Shown: in pieces, positions 1-37,200 of the stretch
Numbering within the stretch: the first letter of the stretch is position 1
How the letters are laid out: every line of letters starts with the position of its first letter
The notes under the pieces: generated by a model
The model's input: the letters and a program-made list of their open reading frames with translations, nothing else
What the model was told of the DNA's origin: nothing
Database searches by the model: none
Program-made: the position numbers and the translations under genes
UHGV virus genome: UHGV-0469413
DNA: 42,060 bases
Strand: one strand, 5' to 3'
Source of the DNA: a virus

Positions 1-21
1 GCGCATATAGGCTTATGGTTA
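1..21. repeat. Left copy of perfect 21-bp terminal inverted repeat (GCGCATATAGGCTTATGGTTA); candidate attP P' arm or element terminus
   Basis: Reverse complement of 42040-42060 is identical for 21 nt and symmetry breaks at nt 22. It overlaps the stop codon of the serine recombinase gene. Confidence 0.8.
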
Positions 22-1605
22 AGGACGCAAAGGAATCTTCGGGTATACCGTCAATTCGAAGTTTATATTATGTAAGTCTCCTTTTTTATTGCGCTCATTT
101 TTTACATAGACAATTCGATCTATGACATTTTTTAATAGTGCATTTTTCGCAGAGGCATCTTCCATGCTATCATATACATCGATGATATGGCGCACAGCAG
201 GCAAGAATTTAGTTCGCGCTTGTTCCTGCAATAATTCTCGTTCGTACTGTTCTTGAAGCTCCTGGAGGCTTTCGGTCGCCTCTGTAATCTGATCTGATAG
301 ACTTCTATTTCGTTCCAAAAACACTTCCGATGTATAAATCCCCTGCTCCAAAAGATCATATGTGGACAATAACTGCTTTTTGAGTGTTTCGATCCTGGCC
401 TCGGTATTTTTGATGGCGGACACGCGCAGGGAAAGCGCCGACACAAGAGGAGACTCCTTCTGCCGGAATGGAAGCTCGTAGCGATCAAGCCAGTCCTGCA
501 ACGCGACGAGGAGTTGTTCCTCTATCAAAAAGATAGGGGAAGATATATTATCACAATATCGATTAGGACACTTCATAACGGGATAGTTCACTTTCGTGTT
601 GCTGGCGGCTCGCGTCATAAGCGCACCACATTTCCCGCAGTAGACAAGGCCAGTAAAAGGATTCTGCAACACTTGATTTGAGGATATAGATATGTTCTTT
701 TTTTCGCGCATAATGGCCTGCGCCAATTCAAATATATCTTCGTCAATGATGGGATCATGAAGGGCCTTAATTTTCATACAGTTATCATAGTCCTTTGGCC
801 TCTTTTCAACCAATTCGCCATTGACGATCTTCTTCTCAACTTTTCTCCACCGCCAGCGAACCTTGCCGGTATAGGTAGGATTGGTTAGGATATCTTTTAT
901 GGTTGATCTGGACCACATGGTGCTATTGCGCGGCTGAATATGTAAGCTGTCCAATCTCTTGCTGATCAGATACATTCCCAGGCGCTTAAACTCCCCATTT
1001 TCTTGCAGCTCGCCCCTGGTATACAGATCGTAGATTAAGCGGACAATATCGGCCTCGCTCGGTACGATCTTTAGTGTGTAGCCCTTATCGTTTTTGATCC
1101 GCACGCGCTCATATCCATAGGGGGCTGAACTTGCGATATACTTTCCTTCCTCGACGGAGGCAATGCGTCCACGCTGTATACGACGATTTATGGTTTTGTA
1201 CTCGCGCCTGGACATAAAAAGCCCAAACTCGAAATACTCTTCGTCAAATTCATTCGATGGATCGTATATTTTAACCGGGGTAATAATTTTCGTATTGCTG
1301 AACTTAAATGCCTCGGCGACGGTTCCCTGATCCTTGGTGTCGCCTCGGGCAAGTCGTTCAACTTCCATGACAAGGACGCCTTCCCATAGCCCTTCTTCAA
1401 CTTCGCGAATAACCTGTTGCATCTTGGGCCTGGCAGCGATTGTCTCACCGGATACAATTTCCTTGTATATTCCAGTGACATTCAGGTTCATTTTTTTGGC
1501 AAGTTCTATTAATGTTTTTTCGTGCCGGGCAAGCGTTTCGCCTTCGCCACGGGCTTCGGCATCCATGTCGGCGCGGCTCTTTCGTAGATAGATTAAGTAT
1601 GGCAT
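19..1605 (-). CDS. int: Large serine recombinase (phage integrase, resolvase/invertase N-domain + Recombinase domain + zinc ribbon + coiled coil)
   Basis: 528 aa. N-terminal YLRKSRAD catalytic region. Recombinase-domain motif WSRSTIKDILTNPTYTGK. Zinc ribbon CGKCG...KCPNRYC. C-terminal coiled coil. RBS GAGGT before the ATG. Confidence 0.9.
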   Translation of the reverse strand: MPYLIYLRKSRADMDAEARGEGETLARHEKTLIELAKKMNLNVTGIYKEIVSGETIAARPKMQQVIREVEEGLWEGVLVMEVERLARGDTKDQGTVAEAFKFSNTKIITPVKIYDPSNEFDEEYFEFGLFMSRREYKTINRRIQRGRIASVEEGKYIASSAPYGYERVRIKNDKGYTLKIVPSEADIVRLIYDLYTRGELQENGEFKRLGMYLISKRLDSLHIQPRNSTMWSRSTIKDILTNPTYTGKVRWRWRKVEKKIVNGELVEKRPKDYDNCMKIKALHDPIIDEDIFELAQAIMREKKNISISSNQVLQNPFTGLVYCGKCGALMTRAASNTKVNYPVMKCPNRYCDNISSPIFLIEEQLLVALQDWLDRYELPFRQKESPLVSALSLRVSAIKNTEARIETLKKQLLSTYDLLEQGIYTSEVFLERNRSLSDQITEATESLQELQEQYERELLQEQARTKFLPAVRHIIDVYDSMEDASAKNALLKNVIDRIVYVKNERNKKGDLHNINFELTVYPKIPLRP

Positions 1606-1617
1606 AGAATTACCTCG

Positions 1618-2130
1618 TTAATAACATTTTGAGCATGGGGTATACCCCATATCTTCGGCTTCGGATCGCGGGATTTCTTCGGGAGCATTCATGTTGGAAC
1701 AACCTTGGCTAGAGTGATAACGTTTCCCCTTTGCTGTTACCCATACCATATCATTAAATCTTTTGCGCCCTTCATACACATCAAGGGCTGGTACATTAAG
1801 ATTTGAGTAAGGTTCATCTTGAGCAAAATTATATCCCCCTTCAAATCCATCTATAAAACCAAGGCTATATCCCTTTTTATATCCATCATCAAAACTTTCA
1901 TATCTTGATTGACCTTCAACAAACCCTTCATTATAACCAGCATCATAAGCAAGGTTGTCGTGGACTTGTTCGCCTTGCTCATATCCTTTTGAATACTCGG
2001 CGGAAGCACACGATGATAATTCAAATTCTAACCGCGCTTCATATCTATTTTGTTGGGACAATAGAGCGATAGTAAATGCAGCAATAATCAAACTCATAAC
2101 GCCCAGTATTGTAAATCTTCTTTTTTTCAT
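1618..2130 (-). CDS. Secreted or membrane-anchored protein with GY/GF-rich repeats and a C-terminal Cys motif (moron between int and repressor)
   Basis: 170 aa. N-terminal signal/TM segment MKKRRFTILGVMSLIIAAFTIALLS. Repeats of G[YF]xxG. C-terminal GKRYH..C...GYTPCSKC. RBS GGGGGA. Confidence 0.6.
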   Translation of the reverse strand: MKKRRFTILGVMSLIIAAFTIALLSQQNRYEARLEFELSSCASAEYSKGYEQGEQVHDNLAYDAGYNEGFVEGQSRYESFDDGYKKGYSLGFIDGFEGGYNFAQDEPYSNLNVPALDVYEGRKRFNDMVWVTAKGKRYHSSQGCSNMNAPEEIPRSEAEDMGYTPCSKCY

Positions 2131-2172
2131 AAAATCCCCCCAAAAATGTCAGTATCATATTTTGATAAAAGC

Positions 2173-2562
2173 TTAATTTTTTAATTGATTAATAATCTCA
2201 TTTCTTTTTTCTTGCTGTGCAGCAGTCAATCCGATATATTCAGCAATATCCTCAAGTGAATCTTCAATGTTACTAATTTTGAGGCCCATATCATATGTGC
2301 TATCCTGCAAATTGCCGATTTGCTTGCGAATGACAGCAACATCTTCTTTAGTGGCATAATTATCGGAAGTAGAATTTGTGGAAACAGTTGTTGCATTATC
2401 CGATGAGAGCATCGAGACTTGCTGTTGAAGGTCATTTACCTGTTGAGATAAATAAAAGTTTGAAAAAATTAAAAAGGCAACGCCGCATATTAATAGCAGA
2501 ATTAAAAAATATGAAAATCTTGGTTTATTATGTTCAATTTCATCATAATTATCTTTTCTCAT
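2173..2562 (-). CDS. Small membrane protein with coiled-coil region (possible superinfection-exclusion moron)
   Basis: 129 aa. One TM helix (FSYFLILLLICGVAFLIF). RBS GGAGGG. AT-rich relative to the phage backbone. Confidence 0.55.
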   Translation of the reverse strand: MRKDNYDEIEHNKPRFSYFLILLLICGVAFLIFSNFYLSQQVNDLQQQVSMLSSDNATTVSTNSTSDNYATKEDVAVIRKQIGNLQDSTYDMGLKISNIEDSLEDIAEYIGLTAAQQEKRNEIINQLKN

Positions 2563-2813
2563 AGTGATACACCCTCCAATTAATGGATTTATTTACCAGT
2601 ATTTCCTTTATTTTACATATTGTATAATAGTTTTGCACCCAGCCTCACCAATAGAAAGAGGTTGATCATTATGTCAAAGAAATACATATGTTACAGCAGG
2701 CACGAGATATACGCGATATACTATCGGGAGACTCGAATCATCTACTATAATATTGACTTCTGTGGCACGACTAAAATCATACTACTATTCTAATGACGGA
2801 CCGGCTGGGTGTT

Positions 2814-3269
2814 TTATCCTGCCGTTTCAGTGCGAACATCCACCGGCGGGAACTGGCGCTCTAACTCTTCGGATGTATTTGGTACACCGTCAAAAATAGA
2901 TTTCCTGGTTGGTATGCCGAAATTATCAAGGAAGCGATCCAGGAATTGCGTTCTAAGCTGTGGATCGATTTCAAAATAAGCCTTTAAAATTCCAAGCTCC
3001 CGATCAGACATTCCGTGATCCTTTGCGAACTTATCCAGGCTGAATACATTGGGTTGCATAGATTTTGGGCCGACTCCATCGCGCAACCATTTTTCGTTAA
3101 TAAGGAATGTTTGGCATATAGATTTAATGGTTACATCAGAAGCATTGTGGCCTTCCTGTTCAATATGGCTCACGCCTCTCTGGGTTAGACCGATTTTTTT
3201 TGCAAAGTCGCTTTGATTCAGCCCAGATTCTTTTCTCACATCTTTTATTCTGGAATTTATACTATTCAA
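2814..3269 (-). CDS. XRE-family HTH transcriptional repressor (cI-like)
   Basis: HTH_3 motif GLNQSDFAKKIGLTQRGVSHIE. Likely TTG start at 3269 preceded by AGGAGGTGA. The ORF track extends it to a TTG at 3320. Confidence 0.8.
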   Translation of the reverse strand: MNSINSRIKDVRKESGLNQSDFAKKIGLTQRGVSHIEQEGHNASDVTIKSICQTFLINEKWLRDGVGPKSMQPNVFSLDKFAKDHGMSDRELGILKAYFEIDPQLRTQFLDRFLDNFGIPTRKSIFDGVPNTSEELERQFPPVDVRTETAG

Positions 3270-5873: not shown

Positions 5874-6034
5874 GAAAAGACTGGTATCGCTGCGAGGGTT
5901 GCGGCTGTAGGCTGGACCCGGGAGAAGGGCGCATGTGCGATGAATGTCGTGAGGTACAGAAGATCAGATACAACCAGATCAAGGCCGAAAAAGACGGCCA
6001 GTACCGCATGATCCTGGCACATGCTTCAAAATGA
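5870..6034 (+). CDS. Small CxxC...CxxC zinc-ribbon protein
   Basis: 54 aa. GTG start overlapping the upstream stop. Two CxxC pairs. Confidence 0.35.
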   Translation: MRKDWYRCEGCGCRLDPGEGRMCDECREVQKIRYNQIKAEKDGQYRMILAHASK

Positions 6035-6128
6035 AGGAGGCCCCAGCGATACGCGGAATATCACCAGGGCCGGAAAAGTTACTACAATTAATATACCCCA
6101 AATCGCGGATTTTTTCAAGGAGAATTTC

Positions 6129-6887
6129 ATGAGAATTATCAACATAATCAACCTGAAAGGCGGGGTTGGTAAGACCACCACCGCCATGGAAATGGGATAC
6201 ATATTACATCATAAGTACGGGTACTCCGTGCTGCTGGTGGATAACGATAAGCAGGGCAATCTTAGTAGGGGAATGGACCTGTACACAGACAGCGGCATAT
6301 GCCCAACGGCCCGCCTGCTGTCAGGGGAGCCAGTGCAAGACCTGATCCACCACGACGGCATAGACACCATAGCCGCCAACATGTCCCTGCTGACCGTTAT
6401 CCACCGCCTGACCTCAAGGGGGCAGATCGTAACCAGCAGTTATCAAAGCCTGCGGAAAGCCAGGACCCAGGACGGGAAGCCATACGACTACGTGATCATT
6501 GACAACCCCCCGGACCTGGGGATCAACGTGATTAACGCCCTGATGGTCACCGACGACGTGATCATCCCCACCAAGATAGACCAGTGGGCGCTCGAAGGGC
6601 TGGATATCATCGGGGACCAGATCGCGGAGATCAAGCAGGTAAACCCTGGAATCCGCCTGGCGGAGGCATTGATAACCATGTACCGCAATACACCGGCCTG
6701 CGATGCCGGATTAGATTGGCTCCATAAGCACAACTACGGCGCTTTCGACACCGTGATCCGTTATAGCGAAAAGGCTGCGGAGTGCACCTTCTTCGGACAG
6801 TCCCTCCAGGAGTACAGTCCCAGGAGCGCAGCAGCCGTATCTTACCGCCGGTTCGTGGCGGAATATCTGAGGGGGACAAGCCAGTGA
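6129..6887 (+). CDS. parA: ParA/Soj-family ATPase
   Basis: Deviant Walker A KGGVGKTTTA near the N-terminus. ATG at 6129 with RBS AAGGAGAA. The track ORF starts upstream. Confidence 0.85.
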   Translation: MRIINIINLKGGVGKTTTAMEMGYILHHKYGYSVLLVDNDKQGNLSRGMDLYTDSGICPTARLLSGEPVQDLIHHDGIDTIAANMSLLTVIHRLTSRGQIVTSSYQSLRKARTQDGKPYDYVIIDNPPDLGINVINALMVTDDVIIPTKIDQWALEGLDIIGDQIAEIKQVNPGIRLAEALITMYRNTPACDAGLDWLHKHNYGAFDTVIRYSEKAAECTFFGQSLQEYSPRSAAAVSYRRFVAEYLRGTSQ

Positions 6888-7204: not shown

Positions 7205-8209
7205 ATGGGAAAGTGGTCCGTAATGGAATTGATCGGCATATCTGCCGACGACGAGCAAGATTTTCAGGAAATTATGCTCTCCCCTTACGAGGTGGAAGCA
7301 TCAGAAACCAATTTCTACAGTCAGGAAAACATCGAAGAGCTGGCGGACTCAATTCGCATGGTCGGCCAGCAGCAACCGACGGTACTGGGTCGCGTGGATG
7401 GCGTCTATAAGATCATCAGCGGTCACCGTCGCAATCTCGCCAATATCCATAATATCGAAACCGGGGCCTTCCCCCGTGATTATCAAGCAAAATATCTCTA
7501 CAAGGACATGACCCCGGCCATGCTGGAGCTGTCCCTGATCGTCGGCAACGCCTTCAATCGTCGCCTGACCCCCTACGAGGAGACGGAACAGGCCGCGCGC
7601 CTGAAAGCTGCGCTGATCCGCGCCCGAGACGAGGATGGGCTGGAGATCACCGGGAAACTGCGAGACGTGGTAGCCGACATCCTCCAGACCAGCCGCACGA
7701 AGGTAGCGCGCATGGACAAGATCAACAACAGTCTGGAACCGGAGGCCCGTGAACAGTTCAAAGCTGGGAAACTGGGGAAATCTGCGGCCTATGAGACGGC
7801 GAAACTGCCGGAGGAAGAGCAGCGCCAGATCGCTGCCCAGGCCGCAGCCGGAAAAGCGGTCAAACACAAGGAGGTTGCGGAGAAGGTGGCCGAAAAGAAG
7901 GCTGAACAGGCCGCAGCCCGCGCCGAGAAAGCCGCCAAGAAAGCGGAAGCAGCTCAGACAGCCGCCGCCCAGGCAGGACTCCAGGCAGAGCGCGCAGCGG
8001 AAAGCGCCGACACCAGCGCAACACTGACATCTGCCCACATGAATCCGCCGGAACCTGCTGAACAGCAGGAATGGACTACCAGGGATTGGGCAATCTACCA
8101 CCTCCGGGAGCTGATGGGCGTGGCAAGCTATATTACAGAGGATGATCTGATCGTATTGCAGGACATTTTAATGGCCGCGACAGGGAGGCGAGACAATGAA
8201 CGATGCTAA
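7205..8209 (+). CDS. ParB-like nuclease domain protein (IbrB-like), Ala/Lys-rich C-terminus
   Basis: ParB-N motif KIISGHRRNLA. RBS TAGGAGG. Confidence 0.8.
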   Translation: MGKWSVMELIGISADDEQDFQEIMLSPYEVEASETNFYSQENIEELADSIRMVGQQQPTVLGRVDGVYKIISGHRRNLANIHNIETGAFPRDYQAKYLYKDMTPAMLELSLIVGNAFNRRLTPYEETEQAARLKAALIRARDEDGLEITGKLRDVVADILQTSRTKVARMDKINNSLEPEAREQFKAGKLGKSAAYETAKLPEEEQRQIAAQAAAGKAVKHKEVAEKVAEKKAEQAAARAEKAAKKAEAAQTAAAQAGLQAERAAESADTSATLTSAHMNPPEPAEQQEWTTRDWAIYHLRELMGVASYITEDDLIVLQDILMAATGRRDNERC

Positions 8210-13103: not shown

Positions 13104-14144
13104 ATGGATAATAACCAGACCGCAAAGAAGCATCTGATTGATAACGTATTAGTTGCAATGGCACAGTATTTGACCGCCGAAGTGCTCCAGATTTTGGAGC
13201 GCGTGCTGGCAGAGGAACTTGTGAAGGTAGTGATGGAAGAGATCACCACGCTGCCGGCAGAGGTCAAGGACAGCGTGGACGACCAGAACAAGTACATAAT
13301 TCAGCTCTTCTTATATAAGAAGAAAAAGCTGAAAGAAGGCACGAAATACAACTATCTCAATTCCATCAAGCGGCTGATCACCCTGATCTATAAGCCGCTG
13401 AACCAGATTGATGAGATTGACATATACAGATTCTTGGATTGGTACGAGAACCACAACGGTAACACGGGTAAGAAGAATCAGCCGGTCACCGTCAACAACG
13501 AGCGTCGGAACCTGTGCGCGTTCTATAGCTGGATGCGCAAGGAGAAGATGATCGCATATAACCCGGTCGAGTCAATCGAGCCGCAGAAAGTGATCCGCAA
13601 GCCCATCGACTATTTCCGGCCTGAGGAGATCGCCAAGCTGAAGGACGGCTGTGAGACCCTTCGGGAACGGGCCATCGTGGAAGTCCTGCGCAGCACCGGC
13701 GCACGTGTCGGTGAAGTCGTTGAAATCACCAAGGACATGATCAACTGGGAGACCGGTGATATCCTGATCCTGTCGGAGAAGGGGGAGCGCTACCGCACAA
13801 TCTACCTGGACCCGGAGGCCCGCTATCATCTGCACAAGTACCTTAACTCCCGGGAGGACTACACGCCGCAGCTCTTTGTTCACACGCGAAAGCCCTATAA
13901 GTCATTGTCAACCTGTGGGGTCCGCATGATCTTGAAAGACATTGCGGCGCGGGTTGACATAACATCAAGGGTCTATCCCCACAAGCTCAGAAAGACGTTG
14001 GGCATGAACCTCAAAAATAGCGGCGTTGACATCGGAACGATTCAGGAAATTTTGGGCCATGCAGGCCCGGAGGTGACAGCAGCATATTACGCTCAGTCCA
14101 CGCCGCAGACGTTGCGCCAGGTGCGGGAACGGACGGCAGCATAA
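13104..14144 (+). CDS. Tyrosine recombinase (XerC/XerD / phage-integrase family)
   Basis: Catalytic signature R (STGARVGEV), HKLRKT (H-x-x-R), LGH and the C-terminal AAYYAQ tyrosine. RBS AGGGGGTAAG. Confidence 0.85.
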   Translation: MDNNQTAKKHLIDNVLVAMAQYLTAEVLQILERVLAEELVKVVMEEITTLPAEVKDSVDDQNKYIIQLFLYKKKKLKEGTKYNYLNSIKRLITLIYKPLNQIDEIDIYRFLDWYENHNGNTGKKNQPVTVNNERRNLCAFYSWMRKEKMIAYNPVESIEPQKVIRKPIDYFRPEEIAKLKDGCETLRERAIVEVLRSTGARVGEVVEITKDMINWETGDILILSEKGERYRTIYLDPEARYHLHKYLNSREDYTPQLFVHTRKPYKSLSTCGVRMILKDIAARVDITSRVYPHKLRKTLGMNLKNSGVDIGTIQEILGHAGPEVTAAYYAQSTPQTLRQVRERTAA

Positions 14145-15548: not shown

Positions 15549-15653
15549 TGTGTGCGCCTGCGCGCATGGGTGTACGCGCGCGCGTAATTGAGAAGCAAGG
15601 GAGCCAGCAATGGCTCTCTTTTTTCATGCAAAGCCGGACAAAACCAGACAGAA

Positions 15654-15705
15654 AATGGGGTGGGGGCATCGACCGAAAAAATTCGATAAAATGGTTGACA
15701 GGAGG
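15654..15705 (+). promoter_or_regulatory. Conserved late-region motif copy A (AATGGGGTGGGGGCATCG...GATAAAATGGTTGACAGGAGG) immediately upstream of terS
   Basis: About 90% identical to 25938-25989. Core AAAATGGGGTGGGGGCATCG also at 19944-19963. Each copy ends in the RBS of the next gene. Confidence 0.5.
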
Positions 15706-19622: not shown

Positions 19623-20029
19623 CGAACGTATACATAACCAACGGGATGGGATACGCCCGCGTGAAGATCGAGGGACATGCCGGATATGGAGCAGCCAACC
19701 ACCTGCCGGAGGGCCATGATCTGGTATGCGCTTCCGTGTCCATTCTAGGACAGACCGCGATGCAGATCGCAATAGACATGGAGAGCGAGAAGAAAGTGAG
19801 CATTGCGCAAATGATCTGCACACCGGGTCTGATTGACCTGCGGATATTGCCGAAAAGCGCCCATGCTCAGGAGTTGCAAGACAAGATCGAGGCCATAAGG
19901 ACCGGCTTTGAAATCTTGTCAAGCACTTTTTCAGACTACGTGAAAATGGGGTGGGGGCATCGGGAAATAAAATCTGGTATGGTATACCCAGATGGCAAAT
20001 GCCTGGCTCTCGGGAAAGACCGTGAATAA
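19619..20029 (+). CDS. prp: Prp-family cysteine protease (ribosomal-processing protease homologue) for scaffold/capsid N-terminal trimming
   Basis: HAGY...DLVCASVS motif (His/Cys dyad). Located between portal and scaffold. Confidence 0.75.
   Translation: MTNVYITNGMGYARVKIEGHAGYGAANHLPEGHDLVCASVSILGQTAMQIAIDMESEKKVSIAQMICTPGLIDLRILPKSAHAQELQDKIEAIRTGFEILSSTFSDYVKMGWGHREIKSGMVYPDGKCLALGKDRE
19944..19974 (+). promoter_or_regulatory. Degenerate copy C of the conserved late-region motif, inside the 3' end of prp and ~90 bp upstream of the scaffold gene
   Basis: AAATGGGGTGGGGGCATCGGGAAATAAAAT shares the 20-nt core with copies A and B. Confidence 0.4.
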
Positions 20030-22324: not shown

Positions 22325-23608
22325 ATGATAACAGTCAGAGGACGGCAACTGGTGATCCCGAGAGACGAGAACGTGATTGGGACAACCTATGACGATCATT
22401 CTGAGGTCAGGCACTTCCTGATTGACCGTGTAACCACCGGCGGAATTGATCTGTCTCACCTCCATTTTCGCCTGGACCTGGAGTATCAAGGCGAGAAAAA
22501 GGACACAAGCCTGCTGGACGTTGAGGTACGAGAGGATAGTATCCTTCTGACCTGGACAATACCGCGCAGCTGCTTGGCAACTGCCGGAACCGTATGGATC
22601 GCCATTCGCGGATACGACGATAACGGCACAGTCAAGTGGGCCACAAACAAAGGGGCGGTATATGTCGAGGACACAATCGATACCCCTGGAAGTAACCCTC
22701 CGGGCCTGACGGAGCTGGAGCAGTTGGAGCGCCGGATCGAGGAAAAAACCGAAACGCTGGACGCCAACGAAGGAGAGCGCCAGCAGAATGAGACGATCCG
22801 GCAGGAAAACGAGCAGAGACGCCAGAACAACGAGGCAGAGTGGCAGAAGCAGGCAGAGGCGGCAATCAGCCAGGCCAACACCACCTTGCAGGGAGCCAAT
22901 GCCGCCATGGAGGCGGCGCAAGGATCGGAAACAAGTGCGGCTGAATCTGCTACAGCCGCAAACGCATCCAAGGAAGCCGCGGAAGGCAGCGCCAGCGCAG
23001 CAGAGGAGAGCGCGGCAGAAGCCCAGCGGATATCCCAGGGATTTGCGGGATTTGATGGCACAGCCCTGTCAGTCCCGGCGGTGGACGTGCAGGGGCTTGT
23101 AGGGCAGGCTGGAAGCACGAGCAACGTCCAAGCGCTGATGAACTATCTGGCCGTGAAAGTGGCGCAGGAACTGGTCAGCAACGAAGCACTGACCACAATG
23201 CTGCTGAACTATGTGACGAAATCATCCATTGTACAGACGGAGAGCACAGACCCCACCACGGTGCCCTCAAGCCCCTATTTCAAGCAAGTCGCTGATAAAC
23301 TAACTAGTGATTTAGGCGATCTTTCAACTGATCTATCCAATATCCATACAGAACTGACCCCGCTTAAATCCTATTACGTTAATAATATCAACAACAACAT
23401 AGTTAATAAGGTTAATATTGTGCTGTGGGATGCCAACACTGCGGATTCACCATTCAAGGCTGGCAATACCATCCGCGGTAATGGTTTTTGTATTACTTAT
23501 AGTTCTGGAGAACCTTACCTTTGCCAGCTCGCTATGGCCGTGGGAGACTCTAATTTGTTTACCCGACACCGCAGTCAGGAGGGATGGAGCGGATGGACTA
23601 CCAAATGA
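22325..23608 (+). CDS. Fibre protein (candidate head fibre given its position after the major capsid protein), with an Ala/Glu/Ser-rich coiled-coil shaft and a switchable C-terminal receptor-binding domain
   Basis: 427 aa. Coiled-coil shaft QANTTLQGANAAMEAAQGSETSAAES. The last ~100 codons lie inside the invertible cassette 23305-23915. Confidence 0.7.
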   Translation: MITVRGRQLVIPRDENVIGTTYDDHSEVRHFLIDRVTTGGIDLSHLHFRLDLEYQGEKKDTSLLDVEVREDSILLTWTIPRSCLATAGTVWIAIRGYDDNGTVKWATNKGAVYVEDTIDTPGSNPPGLTELEQLERRIEEKTETLDANEGERQQNETIRQENEQRRQNNEAEWQKQAEAAISQANTTLQGANAAMEAAQGSETSAAESATAANASKEAAEGSASAAEESAAEAQRISQGFAGFDGTALSVPAVDVQGLVGQAGSTSNVQALMNYLAVKVAQELVSNEALTTMLLNYVTKSSIVQTESTDPTTVPSSPYFKQVADKLTSDLGDLSTDLSNIHTELTPLKSYYVNNINNNIVNKVNIVLWDANTADSPFKAGNTIRGNGFCITYSSGEPYLCQLAMAVGDSNLFTRHRSQEGWSGWTTK

Positions 23609-23915
23609 TCAATCAGCAGCAATATAAGCAAAATTTATGGTGCACTGTTCGTTCATCATTGCTGTAGGTATATTACATAGCAACATACCATCCAAGTCTA
23701 GTAAGCCAAAAGAAGCAACCTTTGCATACCCCGTAATTTGAAAAGCAACTTTGTATTTAGGGCGCACTGCAAGCCCTGCTAATGTAAGGGGTGTTCCAGC
23801 CTGATTAGGAACAATAATACCGGAAACAAGGCAAATTTTTCCTAGTTGTCTACATTCAACACTAGCGCTGGTTAATCCCGCAGCATTGGCACCAAAATCA
23901 AATGCTAAATCACTA
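23305..23915. other. Invertible DNA segment (Mu G / P1 C / shufflon-like) bounded by 11-bp inverted repeats TAGTGATTTAG (23305-23315) and CTAAATCACTA (23905-23915). It carries two convergent alternative fibre C-termini that meet at the palindrome TGATCA (23606-23611).
   Basis: Both IR copies encode Ser-Asp-Leu in frame with the constant part of the fibre. Inversion would fuse the minus-strand cassette to codon 327. The cassette is AT-richer than the backbone. Confidence 0.7.
23609..23904 (-). CDS. Promoterless alternative C-terminal receptor-binding cassette (Sv'-like) of the fibre gene
   Basis: Open minus-strand frame AFDFGANAAGLTSASVECRQLGKICLV...CTINFAYIAAD* with no start codon. The stop abuts the plus-strand fibre stop. 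Confidence 0.6.
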
Positions 23916-25929: not shown

Positions 25930-25937
25930 CGTGCGAG

Positions 25938-25989
25938 AATGGGGTGGGGGCATCGGCAAAAAAAATTAGATAAAATGGTTGACAGGAGG
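25938..25989 (+). promoter_or_regulatory. Conserved late-region motif copy B immediately upstream of the connector/tail operon
   Basis: AATGGGGTGGGGGCATCGGCAAAAAAAATTAGATAAAATGGTTGACAGGAGG, about 90% identical to copy A. Confidence 0.5.
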
Positions 25990-31243: not shown

Positions 31244-34200
31244 ATGGCATTATCTGAAAACGAAAAAAGGCGGTTTGAGAATCGATATAGGGGTATAGCC
31301 GATCAGAATAGTGATCCATTCGAATCATTACCTGATAGTGTGAAGGCAAGATTGTATAAGCGTAAAAGCACACTTGAAAAGAATGCAGGGGATGTACCGG
31401 CCAGTAAGCGAAAACACATCTATTCAGAATTTGGCACAGGGGTAGAGACGGAGTTCCGCAACAACCTTCCTGGGCTTGCTCAGGAATACGCACGTAAAAG
31501 GGCAGAGAGGGAGCGCACTCTGCCCCTTATCGGTGTGGGGGTATATGAAACAATGACCGGAAACAATATGCCCAGTTTGGCGCTGGAATACGCCCAGGAG
31601 CGGGCCGCACAGGGTTACAAGCGGCCCACATTACGGGACCCAGAGTTTGCGGTAGAGGTGGCACAGAACGCATATACAGGCTTTCAGGTGGCGCAGAGAG
31701 CGATGCAGGAAAGCCCATCCGCAAGAAGCACGGCGGCAGACTATGTAAGCCAGAGAAAGCCCTACAGCCTACGCCAAACCCCGTATGACCAGGACTTGCA
31801 AAAATATGCGCCTCAGAAAGTGGAAGAGAAGTCGAGGGAAAAAGACTTCCGAAATGTCGGATTCTACGACCACAACAACGAATTTGTACGCTTTGACAGC
31901 CTGGAACGGCAACCAGATTATAACGATATCGTGGCGCAATCCAAGCGCAACGGGAATCCCCTGGAGGACTATTATAATAATCCGATCAATAGAAGATTGG
32001 CTTCCATGGGGAAAACCGATGAGGATATTATAAGCCTCACAAACAACTTTGACAGCGCATCCAGCCGCACAAGAAAATACGCTCTCATGAGCGATCAGGA
32101 ACGGAATAATTACAATTACATCTATGGAAAAGCCGGAAAATCAGCTGCGGAGCAGTATTTGGACGCACTGCAAAGCACCATCAGCCAGCGTGGTGCTGCC
32201 GCCCAGTATGCAGAGAGCAAGGCAACGCCCGGCCTGCTGCGGGTGCCGTCCAATATTGGCAAATCCTTTGAAGGAGGCGCTAAAGGTGCAATCGAAGGAT
32301 TCGCCGCATTGCCGGACTTTCTGACGGGTACGGCAAAGGATTACGTCCCGAAAGAACATGAATATCTACAGAGCATGTTACTCGAAGAGGCCTCCTGGCC
32401 GGAAGGGCTGGCGTATAAAGCGGCGTCAGCTATTGGAAATATGGCCCCGTCAATCGCAACTGGAACGATTGCGGGGAAAGCTGCCGGAACCGGGAGTAGG
32501 CTTGCAAGATGGGCGGCAGGGGGAACAGCACAGGAGGCCATTTTTGCGACCCAAACCGCCGGACAAACATATAGAGAGGACATTATGGAGGGCCGACCGG
32601 TAGAAGGTGCCCAAACAAATGCGATCTTTACGGCTATAGATGAAGCCGCGACAAACTGGCTCCTGGGCGGTATATCAAGCCTTGGAGGCGGAACCGCCAA
32701 GAAGCTGCTTGGAAACACAAAAGTGGCGAAAGCCGCAAAACAGGGGATATCCAATGCATTGGCGAGAAATCCTGCAATAAGACGGGCCGTAATGGGAGCA
32801 ATGAACTATGGGGGAGATATGCTCTCTGAGGGCACACAGGAGGCGACACAGGACTTCACAGAGGCTATCAGAAAGCACCTTATCTATGGAGACAAACTGG
32901 ATTTGAAAGGAGTTGCCACCGATCCGCAGACCTGGGAAGATTTTCTTCTCGGCGCGATTACAGCCGGGACAATGAACGCGCCGGGGGCAATCGCAAATAA
33001 TGTCGCAATCAATCATTACGGAAAGAGCATAGACCATGATTACCGTGATGTGGCCGCTGGTATAGACACTCGTCCTGAGAGCTACGCAACGGCAGAGGAC
33101 CAGCAGCAAGCGGTGAACCTCCATAGCTTGGCACAAGAATACGCTGCCCGCCAGGCTAATAAAGAAACAATATCCAACCGTGACAAGGCGGAATTTGAGT
33201 TGCAGCTAGAGAGCTTCAACTACGGCGCACAGGCCCGTAAAAAGGCGCTGGATAGCATCTTTGCAGAGGACCAGGAACCACCTGCGCAGCAGAATCATGA
33301 GCCGGGAGGAGAACAGCCGGACGCCCCCGTGCAGAGGCCCACAATGAGCCAGAACAGCCCGGAAGCGGCCCAGATGAGGGAAGCTGCACCAACAGCTCAG
33401 AAGGTTGATAGCGTGGCGTATAATGCGCCGGAATCCAACGTTAGTGCATTGGAAGAATGGGCAAAACCGTTCGGAGCAGAAGGCCGGGAAGCCTTCAAGG
33501 CCGTATATGACGGCGAGACAGACCTGGGAGCGTATTACCGTGCATTTGGGCGCGCCTATAATATCGGTCGGTATAACATGGAGCCTACACCCCAGCAACG
33601 GGCAGAGGCGGCGGTGATCCTTGGAGTAGATGGTTTTTCTGAGGCTTTTAAGGCTGGAGTACATGATCAGCCGCAGATTCAGTATGACTCCAAAACCGGA
33701 TCGCTCAACGGAATGGTGAAGGGAGCGCCGAAAGAAGGCGGACTTGGGACTGTTGCCCAAAGTGCAACAGAAGCCCAGAAGAAGGTTGCGACACATATTG
33801 GAAAACTCACCGGCCTGCAAATAGACCTTGTGGATGGACTGAACAATCAAAATGCTGCGGCCTCTTACTCCAAAGGCAAGATTACCCTGTCAGTGAACAG
33901 CAGCGATTTCATGGGCTCGGCCGCCCATGAGTTGACACATTACATTAAGGACTATGCGCCGGATGCCTATCAGGTATATTCGGACCACGCGGTACGAGCT
34001 ATAACGGAGGCACAGGGCGTTGACCTTGAAACGATGATCAATGACTACATAAGCACGTATGAGCAGCAGACCGGCCAGCAGTTGAGCCGTGAAGAAGCCG
34101 TTGATGAAATTGTTGCCGACGCCACGCAAAAATTCCTGAATGATCCTGATTTCATCAACCGGGCGATCAAGGAAGATTCGACCATCGGCCAGAGAATTAT

Positions 34201-37200
34201 AGATTTCCTGACCGACGTAATCGACGCGATCAAAGAGCTGGTCAAAGTAGGAAGCACGCGCCGGGCAGCGAAAGCCCTGGAAGAGAACCTTCAATATTTC
34301 GAACACTGCCGCCAAGAATGGATGACTGGACTGGAGGAAGCCGGAGAACGCTATAAAGCAGGCTGGGAGACTGAAACAAAAGCGGAGCCTAAATATAAGC
34401 TTGAAAAACCGGATCAAGTAACGGATGAGAATATCGAACAGAATTATGAAACCGTCAGAAACATGGAACCTGTAGCAATCCTAAAGGGGACAGAATTTGA
34501 CCGAGGAGAAAAGACACTTCGGGATCAAGTGATGGATTATTATTCTTCTATCGGGAAGGTACATAACGATGTAGTCGGGGACATCTATCTGACCAAGGAT
34601 TCCGTGAAAGATGATATTGCGCATGGCGTTGGACGGGCAAAAGCTATTACATTTGCCGCTGTGCCGGATATTCTGAAACAGGGAAAGGTCCTGCAATATA
34701 ATAAGAACTGGAAAGATCGTGGATACGATTCGATTATTCTTGGAGCTCCGATTACCATAGAGAGCGGAAAAAACGTGGGGGATTATTATGGGCTGGCAAT
34801 CGTGAAGGTTTTGGACGATAACCGGCTATATCTGCACGAGGTATATGCGCAAAAAATGGAAGCGAATGTCCCGTTCAAGACCCCGGACCTGAAAACAGGC
34901 AATACACGGAGCGGCGACACTACACTTCCATCTATCTATAGTATATTCGGAAAGCTGTTAGAAGTCAATAACGGTCAGAAATATTATAGATTTTCAAACA
35001 GCGAAACACCCATGAGTGAATATGGACATGCTATGTTTTCAGAGAATGAGGGTAGTGTGTCTGGATATGGAGAAAACGAGTATATATACGATGGAAAAAA
35101 TGCGGTTCCGATAGAATCTCTTAAAGATTTAATTGTAAAGAAATGGGATGAAGCTATAGAAAACGGAATGGAGCCTATAGGATATGAAAATCTTACAGGT
35201 GAAGAGGTCTACCAGGAATTTGATCCATCTGATATTGTGATGAGTGCGCAGGCGTGGGACAATGGAGAATTATTAACATGGTTCTATGAAAATGTCGCAC
35301 TCGAAAATGATATAACAGCGGTTACAACAAAAGATGGTGCGATAGTATTCGACGAAAACCTGATAAAAAAGAAGATCGAAGAGGATATCAGCTACCAGCT
35401 CGAAGATGTGGATAATGTCGATGCCCGGGCGCTCCAGCAGGAAAACAAAACCCTGCGGGAAGCCAACGAACTGCTGAGGAGGGAGCTTGAATTGACCGGC
35501 AAGACAGAGCCGCGCCTGAGTGACGTTAAGAAGGTAGCTACGGAGCTGTTGAGGCAGCATAACAGCGATTACCGGCACGAAACCCTGACGCGAAACTTGA
35601 TCGGGCTGTATGAATATCTGCGCAGCGCCGACCAAGTGGACATGGCACAGGCTGCAGAACTGGCGGCGGGGATCGCCAAAGGCGTCCTTAAGAAGGCAAA
35701 ATCCACGTCAGAGTATGCGCAGCAGTATGAGGACTTACGGCAGCAGATCAGGGATACCAAGATTCAGATTACGGACCAGGATAAGGCCGATCTGATGAGG
35801 ATGGGAGGCTACAACAATTTCCGCAAGCAGTATTTCGGCAAGATGAAGCTGGGAAACGATGGTATATCGATTGACGCCTTTTACCAGGAACTGGCGGATC
35901 AGCATCCGGAACTGTTCGACGCGAACGTCACGCATCCGGCGGATCAGCTCATGGCTGTGGCAACTGCAATCGACACCATGACCGCCCAGGTAGCCAACCC
36001 ATACGGCGCGGACATGGACGAGATGTCTTACATCGTAGGCCAGGAAATCTTGCAGGCATATTCGAAGGTACGGGAAGTTCCGGCCACGTTCGCAGACAAA
36101 AAAGCCGCAGAGCTTCAGCAGGTGCGCCGTGATTATAATAAGAAAATGGCGGAATACAAGAACGACCTGAAAAAGAAGTATGATCAGGCGTTGAAAGAGG
36201 TATGGAGGGAGAACAGCTCCAAGATCGAGGAGCTGGCGAAGGAATACCGCGAATTAAAGGACGCACGCATGGTAGACCGCGCAGAATACCGTACTAAAAT
36301 GGAGCGGCTGCGCAACGACAAAAACTTGGCGCTGGCCGCCATGCAGCAGCGGCACCGTGAACAGCTCCAGCAGCGCAGGGACAGCCTGCGGGCCAGGGAA
36401 GCCAAAAAGCGTATTATCAAGGACACACGAGAAATGCATCGATGGCTGACAGAACCCAATGACAAGAAGCATGTACCGGAAAGCCTGAGAACCCCGGTGG
36501 CGCAGTTTCTCCTCAGCATAGATTTCAGTTCCGATTGGACTGATGAGAACGGAGGCCCAGCGCAGCGAACGATTGTCTGGAAGGACATAAGCAAACAACT
36601 AAATAATATCGTCGAAGCTGGTGGAGTCGTTCAGGAACCGGGAGAACAGCGGATTCTTAACGTCGATCCAGCCCTTCCCGAGAAAATCAACGAGCTTGCA
36701 GATAAAGTAAAACTTCTCCCGAGTCTGGATGAACTGGACGCGAACCAACTGGAGAGGTTGCAGGAAAGCGTCACGGCCATGAAAAAACTGATCCAAGACG
36801 CGAATCAGATGATCAGTAACGCCAATTACAGGAGCGTTGAAACCGCGGCCACAAGCTTCCTGTCGGATGTCAGCAAGAAGAAAGACGCGGTTGAATTTTC
36901 GGAAAATTCCTATGTGGGAAAAGGGAAGAACATGTTTCAAAATGACCTCCTGGACTCTAACAGCGCCTTCTACCGCATGGGGCCGGTAATGCGATCCATC
37001 TACCAGGAGATCAGAGATGCAGAGGATAGGCACACCGCCAACCTGGTAACTATGGAGCGATATTTTCGCGATACCTGCCAGGAGCTTGGGATCACAAAAG
37101 AGGAGCTGCGGGAATGGACCGGCCCGAAAGCCAAACAAATGACCTTCATAGTAGACGGGAAAGCTGTAAAAATGACAGCAGCCCAGCTCATGACTCTCTA

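Follow-up and report, generated by a model that had tools for sequence, protein, structure and literature searches.

Switching of tail-fibre tips by DNA inversion is textbook knowledge for phages Mu and P1. In the Gin/G system of Mu, the Cin/C system of P1, and the Min system of p15B, inversion joins a constant fibre part to alternative receptor-binding C-termini, and Min comprises several segments that generate many isomers. These systems employ a small serine invertase (~190 aa) whose gene adjoins the segment, crossover sites of 26 bp with a 2-bp core, and a Fis-dependent enhancer, and their segments also carry a fibre-assembly gene. The R64/IncI shufflon uses Rci and sfx sites, each consisting of a 7-bp core and a conserved 12-bp arm, and swaps the C-terminal tips of the PilV adhesin, and the pilE/pilS system of Neisseria relies on RecA-dependent gene conversion across tracts of homology. 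Programmed inversions affecting tail-fibre genes are recognised as a class (PMC9881135), and fibre-tip inversion switching has also been proposed for bifidophages, which are temperate phages of the human gut. In the Rin shufflon of these Bifidobacterium prophages, the constant part of a receptor-binding protein (RBP) is combined with alternative C-terminal tips at 11-bp sites, the tips resemble the RBP head of TP901-1, all Rv segments are contiguous at a single locus, and the array is flanked by the gene of an arm-less XerD-like tyrosine recombinase (Mavrich et al. 2018, PMC6109161). Here, we analyse the virus genome UHGV-0469413, a stretch of 42,060 nt referred to as the window, which carries a 611-bp segment bounded by inverted repeats at the 3' end of its fibre gene.

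The window is a complete prophage with a large serine integrase at its left end. The phage is temperate and podovirus-like, and its host is Enterocloster, an assignment taken from a relative in E. lavalensis KCTC 15153 (L083). With a probability of roughly 0.8, we consider the 611-bp segment to be one cassette within a shufflon-like, two-locus system that re-deals the receptor-binding head of a BppU-type fibre. A first-pass annotation of the DNA had read the segment as a cassette that, by inverting, exchanges the C-terminal receptor-binding domain of the fibre; this core reading is supported, and the system is larger than a single inversion switch in that it includes a second locus, exchange of modules, and a central crossover point. 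The features of the fibre locus are as follows.

22325-23304, plus strand: constant part of the fibre gene (codons 1-327), with a BppU-N-like anchor, a long coiled coil, and a helical neck
23305-23315, plus strand: left border repeat IRL1, TAGTGATTTAG, which encodes S328-D-L and is the homology breakpoint in L017, L082, and L083
23306-23608, plus strand: module 1a, the expressed tip SDLGDLSTDL...GWSGWTTK (100 aa and a stop)
23606-23611, no strand assigned: central palindrome TGATCA, with overlapping stops, the junction of the two modules
23609-23914, minus strand: module 1b, the silent alternative tip SDLAFDFGAN...INFAYIAAD (101 aa and a stop)
23905-23915, plus strand: right border repeat IRR1, CTAAATCACTA, followed by TATTGA (to 23921), 6 nt common with the copy at the second locus

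The arrangement of two convergent tip modules bounded by inverted repeats, as originally noted, is real. The two border repeats form a perfect 11-bp inverted repeat, and the fibre open reading frame (ORF; 22325-23608, 427 aa) reads through its left arm. On the minus strand, a second frame extends over 106 open codons (23929 to 23612) to a stop at 23611-23609; it has no ATG, its sole internal start being a GTG at codon 55, and the two frames end head-to-head with their stops overlapping in TGATCA. Both arms encode Ser-Asp-Leu (S-D-L) as AGT-GAT-TTA in their respective frames, and it can be read from these frames that inversion would join T327 to S-D-L-AFDFGAN... with the frame unchanged. The cassette is also AT-richer, its GC content being 0.38-0.45 compared to 0.60-0.65 in the fibre shaft. 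A perfect 11-bp inverted repeat within 3 kb is not rare by itself, and an unrelated one (I9) was also found nearby. The repeat is nevertheless strong evidence because the 9-mer TAGTGATTT is confined to the cassette borders, where all four of its copies in 42 kb are found (0.23 expected; four copies reached in 0 of 100 shuffles), and because AGT-GAT-TTA has an expected frequency of only 0.24% for S-D-L on the basis of the phage's own codon usage. This choice of codons may reflect a DNA-level constraint at the repeat and is counted as support. Inspection by eye revealed no consistent second binding arm or dyad symmetry around the repeats. Arm-to-arm identity stops at 11 bp in the window cassette and reaches up to 16 bp in sister lineages, and each module starts at the border repeat (A)ATAGTGATTTAG, which corresponds to N/x-S-D-L in the helical neck of the fibre.

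The AlphaFold model of the constant fibre part shows an N-terminal beta domain followed by a 110-residue helix and then a helical neck, which crosses the S-D-L junction. Foldseek matches of the N-terminal domain include TP901-1 ORF48/BppU and the baseplate proteins of 80alpha and NF5, and the protein is therefore a tail or baseplate fibre; the same match rules out a head fibre, a reading considered because the gene follows the capsid gene. Structure prediction of both C-termini, which had been proposed as a check, yielded confident models (pLDDT of 92.6 for module 1b and about 90 for the C-terminal beta domain formed by module 1a). The silent module 1b is predicted to behave as a receptor-binding head with the lactococcal-phage RBP fold; its top 17 Foldseek matches are the RBP heads of TP901-1, p2, and bIL170 (TM up to 0.69), and Listeria PSA gp15 and the adenovirus and reovirus fibre knobs follow at lower rank. 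A HMMER search of 1.8 billion proteins placed distant homologues of module 1b at the extreme C-terminus of fibre-like proteins, some of them joined to the fibre at ...VNSDL, and L003 has a close copy as the in-frame continuation of a different fibre, with the joint at ...YSDL (...KALKDDITELYSDLAFDFG). The minus-strand frame is conserved in relatives, with 7 synonymous and 0 non-synonymous differences from L001 (ratio of non-synonymous to synonymous substitution, dN/dS, = 0). Fibre homologues share the sequence ...PYFKQV[TA][DG]KL[TI]SD[LF] and have unrelated tips thereafter, H-type lectin and Gp53-like_C domains are found among the sister tips of the family, and clustering of 47 module instances gave at least 24 tip families. 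One fibre homologue, P0013, has a chimeric tip, of which the first ~110 aa correspond to module 2a of L012 and the last ~65 aa to its module 2b, with the joint at ...LLKNAN/IYYAS...; we conclude from this chimera that long tips are two-domain units which also recombine internally.

Orientation and content of cassettes were compared among assembled sequences of relatives. L017, L082, and L083 align to the window over 3.6-10.5 kb at 92-98% identity, and position 23314, within the left repeat, is where all three alignments stop. The flanks of L069 and L072, two members of a sister lineage, are 100% identical (2831 and 248 nt), as is their 509-bp cassette, which lies in opposite orientation in the two, between 16-bp inverted repeats, AAATAGCAATTTAGCA. 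Two further pairs combine inversion with a change of locus: read as its reverse complement, the cassette at the second locus (locus 2) of L008 matches the one at the fibre locus of L084 (99.85% over 666 bp), and that of L010 likewise matches the one at the fibre locus of L088 (99.9% over 800 bp). Thus, near-identical genomes carry the same cassettes in either orientation and at either locus, and the fibre proteins P0011, P0022, P0025, and P0008 express tips that are silent at locus 2 in other genomes. The repeat itself varies by lineage (AATAGTGATTTA, AATAGTAATTTAAC, and AAATAGCAATTTAGC; variants GTG, GTA, and GCA), and the arms match within every cassette. The existence of both orientations, on which the first-pass annotation had made its case depend, thereby holds for the family through these three pairs and was not found for the window's own cassette, whose inversion is probable. 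The contigs L005, L016, L017, L082, and L083 end 55-62 nt past the repeat or within the cassette, which fits heterogeneity or duplication within the sample and is no proof of either. Module 1a is also found, 100% identical, on the unrelated fibre of another prophage (L005), whose genome in addition carries a window-like prophage (L060); this suggests action in trans.

Beyond the first-pass annotation, 617 bp comprising the cassette and 6 nt recur 100% identical and in the same orientation at 41416-42032, adjacent to the phage attachment site attP. The features of this region are as follows.

40522-41418, plus strand: last phage gene (298 aa), with an N-terminal part of Cas8c/Csd1 and a helix-turn-helix (HTH)-like tail
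41416-42032, plus strand: locus 2 copy of the cassette, fused to no fibre gene
41416-41426: border repeat IRL2
41417-41719: module 2a
41717-41722: central TGATCA
41720-42025, minus strand: module 2b
42016-42026: border repeat IRR2
42041-42060, plus strand: left arm of attP, AACCATAAGCCTATATGCGC, 14 nt from IRR2; the other arm is window 1-20
19-1605, minus strand: large serine recombinase (528 aa; Pfam Resolvase, Recombinase, and Zn_ribbon_recom), which adjoins attP

IRL2 begins with the TAG stop of the last phage gene, whose frame differs from that of module 2a. attP consists of 20-bp perfect inverted arms, AACCATAAGCCTATATGCGC and GCGCATATAGGCTTATGGTT, around a 10-nt centre, GTATACATTT, which is not in the window. 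In L010, L013, and L014, position 42060 runs into position 1 across GTATACATTT, which constitutes attP, and in L007-L009, L011, and L012 the same point passes into a host GH18 gene, in which the prophage sits. Since the window is a prophage ending at attP, the second cassette lies only 14 nt from it. In the circular form, when followed on the minus strand (1605 to 19, attP, 42060 to 41720), module 2b lies directly downstream of the integrase gene, in the same strand and frame with two stop codons between; an ATG is found 5 codons ahead of its S-D-L, with no obvious ribosome-binding site.

The contents of locus 2 differ among relatives. In 10 contigs, its flanks are 97-100% identical to the window (at least 99.9% in nine of them) and the interiors differ; at least seven different cassettes of 560-1079 bp occupy the interval between TAGTGATTT and AAATCACTA. 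Each has two convergent, start-less ORFs (63-188 aa) with S-D-L/F at the repeat, filling 97-100% of the interval, and all 10 contigs keep this untranslated cassette store beside attP. The silent modules show dN/dS of 0.04-0.14, and they are therefore evidently translated often enough for selection. A cassette with the same repeats is also seen on an unrelated backbone (L006, IMGVR_UViG_3300045988_177705, 492-1142), where it combines a plus-like head with a third type of head and lies unfused to any fibre between small-terminase-like and LexA-like genes at the contig end, as another 'orphan' store.

The duplicate raises the question of whether the second copy has been mis-assembled, with the inverted repeat and the open minus-strand frame being due to chance. 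Such an explanation could draw on the unrelated I9 repeat and on the fact that the window ends 28 nt after copy 2, and it is the least credible of all those considered, to the point of being negligible. At 11 nt, the border shared by the two copies is not long enough to mislead a k-mer assembler; the window stops at this point because attP marks the end of the prophage; a cassette is present at locus 2 in every related contig; and comparative support for the minus-strand frame is strong. Moreover, the independent Logan contig L093 (k=31) begins k-1 = 30 nt inside the repeat end, that is, it breaks exactly there, as would be expected if its sample has a duplicate cassette, and this supports the view that the duplicate is real. 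The contig L004 runs straight through, and locus 2 of its sample (L012) holds a different cassette.

Two copies that are 100% identical and end sharply at the repeats, together with copies at orphan sites unfused to a fibre (locus 2 and L006), would also be expected of a non-autonomous element resembling a miniature inverted-repeat transposable element (MITE), in which a 617-bp unit with 11-bp terminal inverted repeats has inserted twice and its reading frames are incidental. The cassette does not show the hallmarks of a MITE, since neither copy has a target-site duplication and the interior is not non-coding; rather, two in-frame ORFs under purifying selection, with a predicted RBP fold, fill 97-100% of it. 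In addition, the ends are constant and the interior varies, with at least seven pairs of modules at one site. A MITE-like origin is very improbable and is already contradicted by the coding constraint on the interior.

Homology breakpoints in the relatives fall exactly at the border repeats and at the central palindrome. The GDIQ... head has different partners in L009 and L013, as does the GFQFYATLE... head in L012 and L086, and in both cases homology starts exactly at TGATCA. This sequence is central in every cassette of the window's lineage as well as in L038 and L041, even where it provides the stop for neither module (L012, L006, L038, and L041). It could be a candidate crossover site or a selected microhomology. 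At locus 2 of L011, two copies of TGATCA lie 16 nt apart at the module junction (cassette positions 365-386; cggTGATCActttgcaataTGATCAtac), as though one had come with each module.

On the proposed mechanism, conservative recombination between the inverted border repeats would flip the cassette and place the other head in frame behind the 327 constant codons of the fibre, for which the predicted inverted junction is fibre...CTAAC-TAGTGATTTAG-CATTTGATTTTGG. The untranslated cassette site between the last phage gene and attP would serve as a store, cassettes would move between the store and the fibre locus, and single modules would re-assort at the central palindrome. The shared cassettes show that transfer between the loci takes place, and we infer that its route is intermolecular, possibly a double crossover between non-allelic sites of two sister genomes; the identical pair at both sites of the window is expected of such a double crossover and would not be given by intramolecular inversions. 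An inversion of 18.7 kb between IRL1 and IRR2, which intramolecular exchange between the loci would require, was unseen in 17 sequences spanning a cassette and its outer flank at either locus, and is therefore not favoured as the route. Switching is presumably frequent within the population, and the rearrangements are probably carried out by a site-specific recombinase. A fuller version of the system is possible and rather doubtful. In this version, there would be two classes of site, namely asymmetric border repeats (ATAGTGATTTAG) and a symmetric centre (A-rich/TGATCA/T-rich); the borders would invert cassettes and swap them whole between the expression site and the attP-proximal archive by intermolecular double crossovers between replicating genomes or co-resident prophages, and the centres would re-pair heads, thereby maintaining a population library of at least 24 heads that is shared in trans with unrelated prophages (L005).

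As for the enzyme, the earlier statement that no small serine invertase gene is present was borne out by Pfam and NCBIfam scans of ORFs of at least 90 aa, in which only the 528-aa large serine recombinase had a Resolvase domain. Of the two enzymes that had been suggested as invertases, this one is unlikely, as it is the integrase acting at attP, and the other stays the leading candidate.

13104-14144, plus strand: Xer-like, arm-less tyrosine recombinase (Pfam Phage_integrase and a SAM-like domain), candidate invertase

Its gene lies 9 kb upstream of the fibre cassette and is present in every cassette-bearing relative. The best NCBIfam matches of the product are XerA/XerD-like and below cut-off, and its matches to the subfamilies of tyrosine-type DNA invertases are weak and far below cut-off. 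We regard it as the invertase only tentatively, at odds slightly below even, and the remaining weight is shared by two alternatives, another invertase (of the host or otherwise) and recombination that needs no dedicated enzyme. ParA- and ParB-like genes are found at 6021-6887 and 7205-8209, and L010 is a stand-alone 41.7-kb contig in GCA_023708325.1, so the phage may persist both as a plasmid and in integrated form.

Several results weigh against a dedicated, site-specific switching system, including the absence of the 18.7-kb inversion mentioned above. No invertase gene adjoins either cassette locus. Among the IMG/VR loci with a homologue of the tyrosine recombinase, a recognisable cassette is present in 10 of 65, counting one contig that ends at the border repeat, and four of the 65 have complete fibres without a cassette (L023, L035, L060, and L076). 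A 55%-identical recombinase is encoded by Clostridium phage phiCs5676-1, whose genome has no such repeats, and the ParA/ParB-like genes and the stand-alone contig make dimer resolution a live alternative role for the enzyme. Wherever the exact cassette of the window was seen at the fibre locus, it is plus-expressed; apart from the window itself, this applies to eight assemblies, which represent two backbones (L004 and L093 on the window's; L001, L002, and L089-L091 on another). Its inverted junction, searched for by the border pattern of the alternative module, is absent from IMG/VR; the same pattern gave three matches in JGI metagenomes, all plus-expressed and all on the L001-type backbone, and a word-based protein search with the alternative module found no fusion to a window-type fibre. 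Finally, TGATCA is ruled out as a rare, site-like word by its 34 copies in the window, and therefore only its central position in the cassettes is telling.

These results could be accommodated by passive mosaicism, in which N-S-D/N-L is a conserved hinge where tips are rarely swapped, and occasionally inverted, by short-homology or illegitimate recombination, through phage or host recombination functions or template switching followed by selection, with no dedicated invertase and no programmed switching. The absence of an adjoining invertase, a tyrosine recombinase that is not confined to cassette-bearing phages, and a window cassette found in one orientation only are all in line with it; the 6-bp TGATCA and the 11-16-bp inverted repeats could be microhomologies, and the same motif joins tips to unrelated fibres in L003 and L005. 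What it does not readily explain is that every lineage has the convergent, start-less, border-to-border layout, that the arms always match perfectly though the repeat varies among lineages, and that the rare codons at the repeat are invariant. Purifying selection on silent modules, the exact inversion isomers with 100% identical flanks (L069 and L072), and the retention of an untranslated store by attP in all 10 locus-2 contigs likewise argue against it. Passive mosaicism is thus unlikely, and the two-locus, shufflon-like system is preferred.

Other features of the window and its relatives were also noted. In the gene at 40522-41418, the N-terminal ~240 aa correspond to Cas8c/Csd1 (Pfam PF09709, E 3e-19) and are fused to the HTH-like C-terminal tail; the gene is 100% conserved in more than 20 contigs, and its product may serve the phage as a decoy or regulator directed at type I-C CRISPR. 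The element GAAAATGGGGTGGGGGCATCG...AAAAAAT occurs at 15651-15705, 19942-19973, and 25935-25989, each time ahead of a structural-gene block, and two of the three copies extend to 55 nt and end with TTGACAGGAGG; these may be late promoters or regulatory elements. A virion-associated giant protein of 2804 aa is encoded at 31244-39658 (2620-2804 aa among relatives), and assemblies often break within its gene. Between this gene and the ORF at 40168, two ~84-nt direct repeats with promoter-like boxes (TTGACA/TATTAT) are found at 39657-39966. L085 has an IS110-family insertion (1946-3121) between its Rep and small-terminase genes.

No annotated relatives were found by megablast of the fibre region against GenBank phages and of the locus-2 flank against PLSDB, or by tblastn of the fibre against phages, and neither GenBank phages, PLSDB, nor the literature searched yielded a case of fibre-tip inversion switching in the abundant temperate phages that infect gut Lachnospiraceae. 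In that literature, there is likewise no counterpart for modules paired head-to-head around a palindrome, a remote silent site at attP, cassette exchange between two sites, or an identical duplicate in one genome. What would be new for a phage is the remote untranslated store beside attP, the exchange of whole cassettes between store and expression site, and the precise re-pairing of heads at a 6-bp palindrome, by which the phage could draw on a reserve of spare tips to change its host range. If its enzyme were identified, the system would offer a tractable handle on host-range plasticity in phages of gut Firmicutes, would explain why assemblies break in their fibre genes, and would provide a compact natural pair of recombinase and 11-bp sites for engineered swaps of receptor-binding domains.

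Compared to the described systems, the analogy with Mu Gin/G, P1 Cin/C, and shufflons drawn in the first-pass annotation holds in so far as a constant fibre part is joined in frame to alternative C-termini (L069/L072), and does not extend to the features of serine invertases. The 26-bp sites of Gin, Cin, Hin, and Min have no match in the window, where the repeats are 11-16 bp (no search for an enhancer was made); a small adjacent serine invertase is absent among ORFs of at least 90 aa, and the cassette does not carry a fibre-assembly gene. Since the defining features tested are lacking, the system lies outside the serine-invertase family. With the R64 shufflon, it shares tyrosine-recombinase logic, short asymmetric sites conserved on one side only, and the swapping of adhesin tips; R64 differs in its plasmid-borne pilus adhesin, contiguous segments, adjacent Rci, and lack of a remote store. 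An Rci-family recombinase and sfx sites were not found in the window, the best NCBIfam matches being Xer-type and the sites unrelated in sequence. Like pilE/pilS, the system has one expressed locus and unexpressed variants elsewhere that replace the expressed part; unlike it, exchange takes place at discrete points of 6-16 bp, and whole units are exchanged or inverted. The Rin shufflon is similar in its Rc/Rv-type organisation, ~11-bp repeats ahead of variable tips, TP901-1-like tips, a Xer-like tyrosine recombinase in the phage, and the absence of a Gin-type serine invertase. The Rin site, TTCCCTAACCC, differs in sequence from (A)ATAGTGATTTAG, and in contrast to Rin, the window has modules paired head-to-head around TGATCA, a candidate recombinase 9 kb away, and a second silent cassette site 18 kb away beside attP. 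Collectively, the system of the window is closest in logic to Gin/Cin/Min and closest in detail to Rin, of whose type it may be a member and with which the likeness is one of organisation, site length, fold, and recombinase type.

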